Program-made: the position numbers and the translations under genes
Part shown: one piece after another, positions 48,401-56,130 of the stretch
Layout: each line of letters opens with the position of its first letter
Numbering within the stretch: position 1 is the first letter of the stretch
From: a virus
DNA: 64,000 nucleotides
Virus record (IMG/VR): IMGVR_UViG_3300050166_000025
Coordinates: 64,001 to 128,000 of that record
Strand: one strand, 5' to 3'
The notes under the pieces: model-generated
Seen by the model: the letters and a program-made list of their open reading frames with translations, nothing else
What the model was told of the DNA's origin: nothing
Databases searched by the model: none

Positions 48401-48742
48401 TTATTTCCAGAACAGCTGAACACATAAGAGTGTTACAGACAACCCTAATGAAATCAAGGTTTTGGTGTTTATTCCCTCATCCATCATAAACCAGGTTAAC
48501 AGGGCAAACACCACCATTCCTGCAGCAAAACCAATGAACCTTCCTGGCCATAAGGCTCCATAATAAGAGGCCAATTCCTTTGTGCCCAAGATAAAGGTAT
48601 AGGACACAATACTACCTCCGATCAATGCTACCCACCCTGGATTTCTATTAAATACCGGCCAGATGAATTGACCGTTGGTTTGAAACCAGACCAGTGACTG
48701 CCCAGCTGCGAGCAATAAGATGCCGTTAATTAGATTTTTCAA
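48401..48742 (-). CDS. small multi-pass membrane protein (DMT/SMR-like)
   Basis: 113 aa, about four hydrophobic helices. Confidence 0.6.
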   Translation of the reverse strand: MKNLINGILLLAAGQSLVWFQTNGQFIWPVFNRNPGWVALIGGSIVSYTFILGTKELASYYGALWPGRFIGFAAGMVVFALLTWFMMDEGINTKTLISLGLSVTLLCVQLFWK

Positions 48743-49371
48743 AATAGTTCTGCTGTTTTTGTCACAATATGAGAGATGAAACTCATTCTGTGTTGTTCAC
48801 ATGGTCCATGCTCTTGAATGGCCTTGATGTGTTGCGCGGTACCATAGCCCTTATTTGAAGGCCAGCCATACTTTTTACCAGCTTCATACTCTCTCATCCA
48901 TTGGTCACGCTTTACCTTTGCAATAATCGAAGCCGCTGCAATCGAAGTATATTTGTTATCGCCGCCGACCACAGTCGTAAAGTTCTTGCCATTGTAGCCA
49001 TGAAACTGGTCTCCATCTACCAGGATAAAATCAAAGTCCGTTTGCTCTTCAACACCGCTTAGTGACAGCATCATACCATGTAAAGTGGCCTTCAAGATGT
49101 TCTGCTCCTCAATAATCTGGGGCTCTACGTGAACACAATACCAAGCAATAGCGTTCTCCATCACAATCTTATAGGCCTCTTCTTTCTGTTTCTCAGACAG
49201 GATTTTAGAGTCCTTAACTAACGGGTGTTGAAAGTCTGCCGGCATAATACAGGCTGCAACCGTAACCGGACCAGCCAATGCTCCTCGGCCTGCCTCATCA
49301 ACGCCAACCTCAATGATTGAAGTGTCCTGATTGTAATGTGATTTTAATAATACGTGTCTCGCTTGGTCCAT
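48739..49371 (-). CDS. rnhB: ribonuclease HII
   Basis: GVDEAGRGALAGPV, DSK, LVDG, SIAAASIIAKV, NKGYGT, HRMSF. Confidence 0.95.
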   Translation of the reverse strand: MDQARHVLLKSHYNQDTSIIEVGVDEAGRGALAGPVTVAACIMPADFQHPLVKDSKILSEKQKEEAYKIVMENAIAWYCVHVEPQIIEEQNILKATLHGMMLSLSGVEEQTDFDFILVDGDQFHGYNGKNFTTVVGGDNKYTSIAAASIIAKVKRDQWMREYEAGKKYGWPSNKGYGTAQHIKAIQEHGPCEQHRMSFISHIVTKTAELF

Positions 49372-49414
49372 TCTCTGTATAGTTTAGAGATTATACAGAG
49401 AATGGCTTAAAAGT

Positions 49415-50230
49415 TTACAGATTGTGCTTGTCTTTCCATTTACAATTATTGAAATGAGATTGCTTCATTGCGGAAACGCCTCCTATTTTTCCACAATGAG
49501 GGCATTCAATCTTTTCTTGTGGTTTACGTAATTTAATTTTAGTAGACTCAGGAAGAGGTCTTCCTTTTTTCCAAGCATGCATCTTGTCCTTTTGCTCTTG
49601 AGTCATATTTTTCTTAGCCTCTGACATCTTACGCTTAGATTCATCGGAATATACTTCACTTTTACCTTTATTCCATGGAGTTTGCCCCTTATGTGATTCT
49701 GAATTTTTTGCTCTAGATTCAGCCGTGTGCTTTACACCTAAACATCTCTTATTACCTAGCATTTGAAGTCTACATCTTTCTCTGAATTCAGCGTCGTGCT
49801 TTATTCCGGTATTAGCTTTAGATATCTTCAATCTAGTTTCTTCACTGCATTTTCTACCAGTTCTTGATTCTGACATTTTTTTACGCGTTTCTTCGGATAG
49901 TGTAGTTCCTGTAATATCGAATTTGTTTGACGATGCTTTACTTCTATTGTAGAACGCTGGATTTTTACCGACATCAAATTTATGGTGCAGCTTAATTTCA
50001 AAATCAATAGCTTCCTTTTTAGAATCAAACAGTGAAACTACCTTATAAGAATAATTAGTTGGATTTTGCTTTTGATCTAATATAAAATCTTTGTCCATAC
50101 TAGAAGAAAAATAGTGAATTCCTATGTCTTCTGAAGGAATTCTATTACATGACCTGGATCCGTAATAGAATTTACGTAATAACGTGTTAGTTATGCGGTA
50201 TACGTAGTGGTATCGATATTCGTTTTTCAT
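49415..50230 (-). mobile_element. free-standing GIY-YIG-type homing endonuclease with NUMOD3 repeats
   Basis: YVYRITN...FYYGSR, YFSSS, FYN; repeated SEETRxKxS; PWNKG; C-terminal CPHCGK. Confidence 0.8.
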
Positions 50231-50365
50231 GAAAAAGATATATGTTTGTGGTTACTCTATATATCTTTTAAAAAATAAAAAATTAAAGGGATGCCGACAT
50301 TGTGCAATTGAATAACCACAAACAATATTCACGAAAATTGTCGAAAATCCCTTTAATTTATATCT

Positions 50366-51067
50366 TTATTTATCGTTCTTATCTTTCCAAGCTTCGTATC
50401 TCTTTACGACCTCTTGTAAGATTTTAGCTCTAACGATATCCTTGTCAGTAAAGATGTGAGTTCCAATTCCCTTGATACCCTTTAGCATTTCCATAAATGA
50501 AGGAAGAGATACTTTATTTCTAGCGATGTCGTGTTGTGAAACGTCTCCAGCTACAATTACTTTAGTGTTCCTGCCCATCCTGGTGACAAAAAGTGCAAGT
50601 TGTCGAAAATCCGCATTTTGTGCCTCGTCAAGAATCATCAGGCAATTATCATAGGTGTCACCTCTCATATAGGCTAAAGGTTGAAACTCGATAATGCCAT
50701 CTCCGAAAAGTTGTTCAGTTTTATTCCAGCCAATAATCTTTTCAATATTAGATTTATATGACTTCATGTAAGGGTCTACCTTTTCATCGATTGAACCGGG
50801 CAAGAAGCCCAGTTTTTCGCCGGCCTCTTGAATAGGCTTGCATAGGATAATTTTAGTGATTTCTTTGTCTTTTAATAATTCCAGCGCAATATAACATGCA
50901 GTGAAAGTTTTTGAGGTTCCTGCTGGACCGTAGCAGAATGTAATATCGTTTTGAAGAACTGTGTTTACGTAATCGTTTTGTGATTGTCTTAACTGAACGG
51001 TTGGTTGAATTTCCGCCTTTGGTTTAGATTGTTGTTGACTCTTTTGATTGTTTCGAGTAGATCCCAT
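50366..51067 (-). CDS. phoH: PhoH-like ATPase
   Basis: GPAGTSKT, LGFLPG, LAYMRG, ILDEAQN, TRMG, GDVSQ. Confidence 0.92.
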   Translation of the reverse strand: MGSTRNNQKSQQQSKPKAEIQPTVQLRQSQNDYVNTVLQNDITFCYGPAGTSKTFTACYIALELLKDKEITKIILCKPIQEAGEKLGFLPGSIDEKVDPYMKSYKSNIEKIIGWNKTEQLFGDGIIEFQPLAYMRGDTYDNCLMILDEAQNADFRQLALFVTRMGRNTKVIVAGDVSQHDIARNKVSLPSFMEMLKGIKGIGTHIFTDKDIVRAKILQEVVKRYEAWKDKNDK

Positions 51068-51086
51068 GCTTATGTTTATTTTTAAC

Positions 51087-51371
51087 TTAATCCCCAGCCA
51101 TTATTACAAGCTCCTTTAGTTTCATTAAGGTATCACACTTCTCATACTCTTCCAGTTCTACAAAGTATTCGATTAATAATTGAATAAACTTTGAGCGTTG
51201 GCCTAAGCCATGTGGAATTTCAATAGTGTTCTTACCGTCTTGAAACGCAATAAACCTGTTAACAGTTTTCGTAAAATTTCTTGTAATGATAGAATAGCTT
51301 GAACGCATCAGCTGGTCTTTTTCATCACCTGTTAAATAACCCATTCTGTTTGTTTGAATGTTTTTTATCAT
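51087..51371 (-). CDS. EEYEKC (UVR-like motif) protein 1
   Basis: C-terminal YFVELEEYEKCDTL. Confidence 0.65.
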   Translation of the reverse strand: MIKNIQTNRMGYLTGDEKDQLMRSSYSIITRNFTKTVNRFIAFQDGKNTIEIPHGLGQRSKFIQLLIEYFVELEEYEKCDTLMKLKELVIMAGD

Positions 51372-51481
51372 GTTGAATTTTCAACAGTTTATATATTTTA
51401 ACCAGTAATGAATCGGTGTGGTTTGGACAATTTTAATAATGTAATATATTTTAGGATGTGAGCCCTGTATCACCGAAGTGT

Positions 51482-56095: not shown

Positions 56096-56130
56096 AGTCT
56101 ATATATTAAAAAATAAAATACCTTATCTCT

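Follow-up and report, generated by a model that had tools for sequence, protein, structure and literature searches.

Homing endonucleases insert into arbitrary transcriptional settings, and their over-expression can harm. For I-TevI, I-TevII, I-TevIII, segB and Aeh1 mobE, RNA structure masks the start region on transcripts that arrive from upstream promoters, and the late promoters of such T4-type homing endonuclease genes (HEGs) are positioned to yield late transcripts free of the inhibitory sequence (PMC2988022). The same source describes the T4 late genes soc, e, 39, 25 and 26, whose start regions are masked in early transcripts, the autorepression of I-TevI, whose operator and late promoter overlap, and the processing of the segB, segG and Aeh1 mobE transcripts by RNase E (PMC2988022). 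A full-text literature search on kissing-loop or terminator-linked control of homing endonucleases returned the T4 work only.

Two further systems are relevant for comparison. In IS10 and IS50, fold-back inhibits the translation of transposase on transcripts entering from outside. ColE1 RNAI/RNAII and CopA/CopT are kissing antisense pairs that act in trans to control replication.

Here, we analyse a locus of a T4-like phage in which a spacer of 135 nt separates phoH from a free-standing HEG. Our main reading, to which we assign a probability of about 0.65, is that the spacer is a translation lock of the T4 type, which insulates the HEG by combining a terminator, pairing of the start region and an internal late promoter.

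Genomic context of the locus

The locus lies in IMG/VR record IMGVR_UViG_3300050166_000025 (151 kb, 37% G+C, completeness estimate about 47%). The window is the whole 64,000-nt stretch analysed, bases 64001–128000 of that record, and its minus strand is the coding strand for nearly all of its genes. A Gp23-family major capsid protein is encoded in the same record as the element, which identifies the virus as a T4-like phage. BLASTN of the locus against cultured phages gave no match. The local order is phoH, the 135-nt spacer, the NUMOD3 endonuclease gene and rnhB:

50366–51067, minus strand: phoH, the upstream gene (Pfam PhoH, E = 5e-63), with its stop codon at 50368–50366
49415–50230, minus strand: the free-standing HEG, 271 aa (Pfam NUMOD3, E = 5e-15)
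48739–49371, minus strand: rnhB (RNase HII), the downstream gene (Pfam RNase_HII, E = 1e-34)

The HEG is present in a single copy in the record. Its N-terminal 110 aa match the full GIY-YIG and SegE_GIY-YIG domains at sub-threshold scores (E = 0.1–0.15), and a PDB sequence search with the protein gave no match.

Shine-Dalgarno-like 4-mers precede just 5% of the record's genes and are rarer there than at random positions. The gene leaders are instead A-rich and G-poor, with A peaks at −3 and at −11 to −13. This scarcity of Shine-Dalgarno sequences, together with the A-rich leaders, makes RNA structure the obvious lever on initiation, and it is probably the main control on initiation in this phage. 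In two relatives (L093, 58–243; L095, 123–302), a gene for ribosomal protein bS21 lies two genes 5′ of phoH, which fits a host with Shine-Dalgarno-independent initiation.

A candidate for a gp55-like late sigma factor was found outside the window, as a 137-aa frame at G000:C1:33990-34151 (-). Its similarity is weak (E = 5e-4 against a gp55-like relative, E = 0.03 against Sigma70_r2). The frame is thus indicated only weakly as a late sigma factor and was excluded from the evidence.

Two hairpins and a long-range complement

The initial annotation of the spacer had proposed two hairpins whose loops carry exact 12-nt complements. Both hairpins are found on the minus strand where they had been placed, the minimum free energy (MFE) fold agrees with them, and the 12-nt complement is present (50324–50313 against 50254–50243). 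The elements of the spacer are as follows:

50359–50367, minus strand: distal 9-nt copy of the hairpin 2 5′ arm, a 9-nt inverted repeat with 50234–50242
50280–50359, minus strand: hairpin 1, terminator type, with a 13-bp basal stem, then 5–6 bp, then a weak 5-bp apical mini-stem
50310–50337, minus strand: anti-leader in the upper part of hairpin 1 (core 12-mer 50313–50324), complementary to 50224–50257
50270–50279, minus strand: T-rich tract 3′ of hairpin 1, read from the sequence and kept in orthologues
50233–50269, minus strand: hairpin 2, with an 11-bp stem that ends 2 nt 5′ of the ATG (50230)
50224–50257, minus strand: HEG mRNA leader and start region (core 12-mer 50243–50254; AUG 50228–50230)

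The RNAfold MFE structure contains both hairpins at −33.3 kcal/mol (z = −4.2), and none of 200 shuffled sequences was as stable. Folded alone, hairpin 1 and hairpin 2 reach −23.1 and −6.1 kcal/mol, respectively, and the 3′ arm of hairpin 2 covers positions −3 to −13 relative to the AUG. The 12-nt complement pair is unique in the window, and neither 12-mer was found elsewhere in the 151-kb record with up to two mismatches. When only the loops were shuffled, a complement of at least 12 nt arose in a fraction of 4.5e-5 of 200,000 trials.

The complementarity extends beyond these 12 nt. A 15-bp core with one G·U pair is followed by four A-U pairs and then, after a 5-nt bulge, by a 9-bp helix that joins the AUG and the next four bases to an internal-loop stretch of hairpin 1. 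The full duplex (50337–50310 against 50257–50224), with two interruptions, is predicted at −25 kcal/mol. A third leader-complementary sequence, the distal 9-nt copy at the phoH stop codon, is engaged in one forced long-range fold.

The proposal that the two loops kiss holds in so far as they are Watson-Crick complementary: 9–10 of the 12 core pairs fall inside the two loops, and the 9-bp loop-only duplex is predicted at −11.3 kcal/mol, compared with −15.1 kcal/mol for the full 12-mer. It is less secure as to form. The kissing arrangement is just one of two nearly isoenergetic pairings, the other being a nested helix, which reaches −32.2 kcal/mol in a forced fold against −33.3 kcal/mol for the two-hairpin MFE, a gap of 1.1 kcal/mol. 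Nearest-neighbour folding assigns no score to a pseudoknot or kissing form, and on these models the contact would be either of that kind or a nested helix.

Hairpin 1 has the stable stem and directly adjoining U-tract of a terminator; in place of a compact GC-rich stem and a short loop, it has an AT-rich stem and a long structured apical region. A consensus terminator scan did not call it, because the loop rule of the scanner is 3–8 nt. In a sigma-70 promoter scan, promoter-like matches were no commoner than in shuffled sequences. An Rfam 15 covariance search of 49300–51200, group I introns included, returned nothing relevant at E values up to 10, and an Rfam search of four related loci (L098, L103, L095 and L151) returned nothing at gathering score. 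A group I intron reading was dropped, as neither this region of the window nor the loci in which a HEG splits phoH gave an Rfam intron match.

A presumed late-promoter motif within hairpin 2

A strand-specific intergenic motif, RATATATA, lies across the 5′ arm and the loop of hairpin 2; it was absent from the initial annotation. It forms part of a longer block:

50251–50269, minus strand: 19-mer late-promoter block, with the RATATATA box at 50258–50265 and a putative transcription start near 50253

Sense copies of RATATATA outnumber antisense copies in the record by 38 to 5, and 30 of the 38 lie in the intergenic DNA that makes up 8.4% of it. From this distribution, its assignment as a phage promoter motif is well supported. 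The record has one other identical copy of the 19-mer. This copy lies some 120 nt ahead of the gene for the major capsid protein gp23, and the promoter is therefore presumably a late one.

Five genes have their ATG 12–13 nt from the start of a RATATATA motif (examples in the window at 56107, 35150, 28941 and 44494). This spacing would place the start of transcription about 5 nt after the box, which for the HEG would be near 50253, and it implies that such late mRNAs may be leaderless or nearly so. The box thus sits between the anti-leader and the leader. RNA that begins at about 50254 has no predicted pairs in its first 40 or so nucleotides, and the surroundings of the AUG are open.

The upstream operon also seems to be under the control of RATATATA-type boxes, at window positions 51397 and 52899, so the timing of read-through and of transcription from the HEG's own promoter may not differ as they do in T4. 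The lock may accordingly insulate the HEG from read-through generally and not impose a temporal delay. Two other by-eye readings were inconsistent among orthologues and were dropped: a −7 box of the Bacteroidota type (TAnnTTTG) on the strand antisense to loop 2, and a DnaA-box-like match.

Conservation in orthologous loci

Protein searches and contig look-ups yielded nine distinct phoH-HEG-rnhB loci with enough upstream DNA, in which the HEGs are 54–71% identical. Each of the nine retains a long hairpin with its T-tract, a box of the RATATATA type, another hairpin that ends at or covers the AUG, and long-range complementarity. Between loci, hairpin 1 is built from wholly different stem sequences while its pairing and the T-tract persist; hairpin 2 is likewise kept in position with differing arm sequences. 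The T-tract 3′ of hairpin 1 is present in all eight other phoH-family orthologues and in L113, and is absent in L162.

A lack of conserved loop complementarity in homologues had been named at the outset as grounds for rejecting the element. The complementarity is instead kept, and homologues show compensated G-C/A-U changes: the core pairing exists in two versions that differ in this way at two positions. An alignment of 11 sequences (the nine orthologous loci with L113 and L162) gives 93.9% pairing in the core helix, compared with 37–53% when the partner is slid. One core pair is AU in seven sequences and GC in four, with none unpaired, and the second pair is compensated too.

The extension helices that run toward the AUG are unrelated in sequence from one subfamily to another, and their small bulges are confined to the leader side. 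Cognate extension arms pair better than swapped partners; only 13 of 5040 permutations were as good (p = 0.0026). The balance between the two folds varies. The nested long-range helix has an ensemble probability of 0.52 in L093 and is the MFE structure of L095 in a shorter fold ending at the AUG, while the two-hairpin fold leads by 4–13 kcal/mol in the other type-B loci. In several orthologues, the core helix by itself is only 10–15 bp long.

One further locus, L102 (phoH 34–717, HEG 718–1521), is organized differently: the HEG ATG abuts the phoH stop codon (TAAATG), and spacer, terminator, promoter box and anti-leader are all missing.

The element and the endonuclease gene as one insertion

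Four relatives without the HEG (L084–86 and L090; PhoH 71–82% identical) have phoH, about 50 nt and then rnhB, with neither hairpin. In the window, the 10-nt sequence that begins with the HEG stop codon is the same as the one that begins with the phoH stop codon in L084. From this junction identity and the joint absence of the parts, hairpin 1, the T-tract, the promoter, hairpin 2 and the HEG reading frame make up one insertion:

49415–50365, minus strand: inserted cassette (terminator hairpin, late promoter, leader and HEG reading frame), absent in the HEG-less relatives

The suggestion that the element moves with the endonuclease is borne out by this joint absence of the cassette parts.

Several relatives carry pieces of phoH downstream of the HEG. 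L095–L097 have a 48-aa reading frame after it, a remnant or split C-terminal piece of PhoH, and L098, L103 and L104 have a PhoH C-terminal frame of 70–71 aa on its 3′ side. Such pieces suggest either a fractured phoH or an invasion within the 3′ coding region of phoH in which the cassette brought a replacement 3′ end. L098 retains the leader core, with coding sequence in place of the promoter box.

A separate hairpin was observed at rnhB. Just after the HEG stop codon, the rnhB start codon lies within the 3′ arm of a perfect 14-bp hairpin (window 49368–49405, minus strand), the 5′ arm of which holds a TGnTATAAT-like box. AUG-masking rnhB hairpins with differing stems also occur in L093, L005, L100, L099, L004, L105 and L090. 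As L090 has no HEG, the hairpin belongs to rnhB; its form suggests the same logic of locked and open states.

Distribution among T4-like phages

IMG/VR was scanned for the two core 10-mers in inverted order, which gave 99 stretches, of which 80 were fetched; these represent 39 unique sequences, mostly from T4-like, cyanophage-related contigs. A direct-repeat control gave 97 stretches (65 unique). The raw counts are nearly equal, and gene context alone separates the two patterns. Among 51 loci with a reading frame of at least 90 aa within 45 nt, 47 have the module directly 5′ of a GIY-YIG/NUMOD3-type frame, and seven of the nine representatives tested matched Pfam NUMOD3 or GIY-YIG, whereas no direct-repeat control stretch precedes a frame of this type. 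In the cyanophage-like contigs, the module follows a gp55-like sigma gene or precedes gp32, Hsp20 or gp47-like genes.

In this cyanophage-like family, the order is anti-leader, compact GC-rich terminator and TATAAATA box, and the helix reaches the AUG. The T and A counts of the extension shift together among its variants. An 18-mer around the anti-leader is identical in the window and in this family; it extends past the paired core, and its unpaired part is not accounted for by pairing alone.

The same layout also recurs with other sequences. L011, L018 and L019 have anti-leader, terminator, TATAAATA, leader and ATG in this order with entirely different helix sequences. This layout is shared, with an unrelated helix, by S-SRM01, a Synechococcus phage in culture (MW015081.1, endonuclease gene at 77663), and there a 16-bp long-range helix is the MFE structure and encloses the TATAAATA box. 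A shared layout with unrelated helix sequences favours base pairing over a DNA word recognised by a protein. The long-range helices hold three G·U wobbles on the sense strand and no A·C, a pattern that weakly supports pairing in the sense RNA. Among 58 more distant HEG relatives, complementarity between leader and upstream sequence was not enriched relative to control genes (p = 0.28). The module is a trait of particular lineages and not of all NUMOD3 endonuclease genes.

Two other occurrences of the core sequences were observed. Unrelated phage contigs (L154, L178, L216, L244, L258 and L264) carry arrays of the 9–10-mer TAACTACAA(A) in direct and inverted orientation. The arrays have the look of iterons or clustered operators, perhaps with no connection to the endonuclease module. 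In L114 and L128, the spacer before a gene for a gp55-like late sigma factor is flanked by the same core pair in inverted order, and the ATG follows 4 nt past the 3′ copy; a gene that does not encode an endonuclease may be masked in the same way here.

Proposed mechanism

The translation lock we propose would make the 135-nt spacer the regulatory head of a mobile GIY-YIG-like/NUMOD3 cassette placed just after the phoH stop codon, and it would act in three layers. In the first, hairpin 1 and its T-tract would, from their form, terminate most phoH transcripts. In the second, the start region of the HEG on read-through RNA would be double-stranded from about −27 to +7. Hairpin 2 would pair −3 to −13 with promoter-region sequence, and the anti-leader would pair the rest, either through a loop-loop or pseudoknot contact or, at a cost of about 1 kcal/mol, through the long nested helix; this pairing would be expected to block translation of the HEG. 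In the third, transcripts that start near 50253, the putative late start, would lack both partners, fold open and be translated.

The initial annotation had further suggested that the loop-loop pairing couples termination of the phoH transcript to silencing of the nuclease. That coupling fails on the order of synthesis. The 3′ partner lies downstream of the T-tract and is made after the polymerase has passed it, and it therefore cannot affect the decision to terminate; a termination switch is ruled out. The pairing most plausibly serves to silence the nuclease.

Alternative explanations

The pairing could also act in trans. The terminated 3′ end of the phoH transcript would then show the anti-leader in its apical loop and throttle the translation or stability of the late HEG mRNA. 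Known antisense RNAs display their pairing sequence in a loop closed by a short stem, and several subfamilies present the anti-leader in just this manner. With a start near 50253, moreover, the late mRNA would begin with 11 of the 12 core nucleotides, and the upstream operon seems to carry the same class of promoter, so both RNAs could coexist. Against this, the anti-leader of the cyanophage-like family, of L011, L018 and L019, and of S-SRM01 lies 5′ of or around the terminator and is nested in cis, and a nested cis helix suffices to explain the pairing. We judge an antisense role distinctly unlikely as the explanation of the element, and it could work alongside the cis lock.

Similarly, the interrupted helix of about 25 bp, which would form on read-through RNA only, might serve as a target for a double-strand-specific RNase, whose cleavage would separate the HEG message from the phoH mRNA and lead to its decay. 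RNase III substrates span a range of length and energy that includes a helix of this size, and both the length and the −25 kcal/mol of the present helix fall within it. RNase E processing at segB, segG and Aeh1 mobE offers a precedent (PMC2988022). However, the core helix alone measures only 10–15 bp in several orthologues, and such processing would come as a further effect of that pairing, not as a separate explanation. We give it little credence as a reading in its own right.

A third alternative places the function in the DNA. The inverted copies would be an operator pair, bound by the NUMOD3 region of the HEG or by another phage protein, that represses the late promoter between them. I-TevI provides the precedent, with an operator overlapping its own late promoter (PMC2988022). 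The conservation of the core motif past its paired part before NUMOD3 proteins of distant phages and the 9–10-mer arrays in contigs L154, L178, L216 and L258 are consistent with a protein-bound DNA word. The recurrence of the layout with unrelated helix sequences argues otherwise, as do extensions that differ by subfamily and yet remain complementary as far as the AUG, with their bulges on one strand, and the presence of three G·U and no A·C pairs in the long-range helices. The direct-repeat arrangement was found before no GIY-YIG/NUMOD3-type gene. The leader also shows no significant similarity to the phoH-rnhB junction of HEG-less relatives, the presumed homing site: shuffled sequences matched the similarity score in 0.9 of trials for L084 and L086, and one marginal value of 0.008 arose among six tests. 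As the similarity was no better than in shuffles in five of the six, an operator that mimics the homing site finds no support in this comparison, and an operator of any kind seems to us highly improbable.

Chance, or a functionless inverted duplication hitch-hiking in an AT-rich spacer, can be dismissed as extremely improbable, since the commonness in IMG/VR of exact 10+10 patterns of such composition (97 stretches in the direct-repeat control) and a largely invariant core, which for that reason yields no covariation signal there, stand against the loop-shuffle P of 4.5e-5, pairing kept in nine of nine orthologues despite full turnover of the hairpin 1 stem, and compensated changes with matched extensions.

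Significance

The translation lock would be a compact solution to the exposure of a homing endonuclease gene to foreign transcription: the loop of a terminator bears the silencer of its own read-through and is followed by a private promoter. It would extend the T4 scheme to a phage without Shine-Dalgarno sequences. Conservation of the element extends over many uncultured T4-like phages and reaches at least one cyanophage in culture, S-SRM01, which makes it testable at the bench. It is a candidate new RNA family for annotation, and it marks the boundaries of a mobile cassette, which aids the reading of endonuclease invasions in metagenomic phage genomes.

A wider reading, which we hold to be unlikely, joins two ideas: that the element is a portable, self-insulating module moving with GIY-YIG/NUMOD3 genes among T4-like phages, and that the 3′ end of the phoH transcript acts as an antisense RNA in trans. 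If true, the module would span very different hosts, from cyanophage-like genomes with a TATAAATA box to a phage with a RATATATA box and no Shine-Dalgarno sequences. It would represent a cis/trans regulatory RNA of a new class, associated with selfish genes, in which the RNA from the phoH 3′ end sets the level of nuclease.

Comparison with known systems

The closest likeness is to the control of T4-type HEGs. In both cases, a mobile endonuclease gene of a T4-like phage has its start region paired with upstream sequence. In the window, a late-promoter motif lies between the arms, and transcripts from the predicted start site just beyond it would lack the inhibitory arm, as late transcripts do in the T4-type scheme. 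The T4-type structures mask a Shine-Dalgarno sequence, whereas the window HEG has none and its A-rich leader and AUG are paired instead. Unlike in the T4-type scheme, the inhibitory sequence is doubled, as a local arm and as an anti-leader in the apex of an upstream terminator hairpin, and the topology would be a pseudoknot or kissing contact or a nearly isoenergetic nested helix. The late box also differs, being RATATATA in the window and TATAAATA in the T4-type scheme.

The T4 genes soc, e, 39, 25 and 26 apply the same logic to ordinary phage genes, to which the hairpin over the rnhB AUG is comparable. They use single local hairpins, and the use of a terminator loop is not among the arrangements reported in the account of them in PMC2988022. 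With the I-TevI operator, the locus shares a conserved sequence that adjoins the late promoter of a GIY-YIG/NUMOD3-type gene. It differs in that no similarity to the presumed homing site was found and in a pairing partner whose sequence changes between families.

Similarities with more distant systems are also apparent. Like IS10 and IS50, the cassette is a mobile element in which the start region pairs with sequence upstream of its own promoter, against transcription from outside; IS10 and IS50 are elements of another kind, and no terminator hairpin is known to be involved in them. As in ColE1 RNAI/RNAII and CopA/CopT, complements are shown in hairpin loops, where pairing could begin and spread into the stems. 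In contrast to those pairs, both partners lie on one read-through transcript, and loop display is not found in every subfamily.

The locus had at first been described as a possible undescribed cis-regulatory RNA. This applies to its sequence family and topology, for which Rfam holds no match, and not to its principle, which is known from T4-type HEGs. What is new here is an anti-leader embedded in the terminator and doubled by a local hairpin, the use of this device by a phage that lacks Shine-Dalgarno sequences, and how large the conserved family is.
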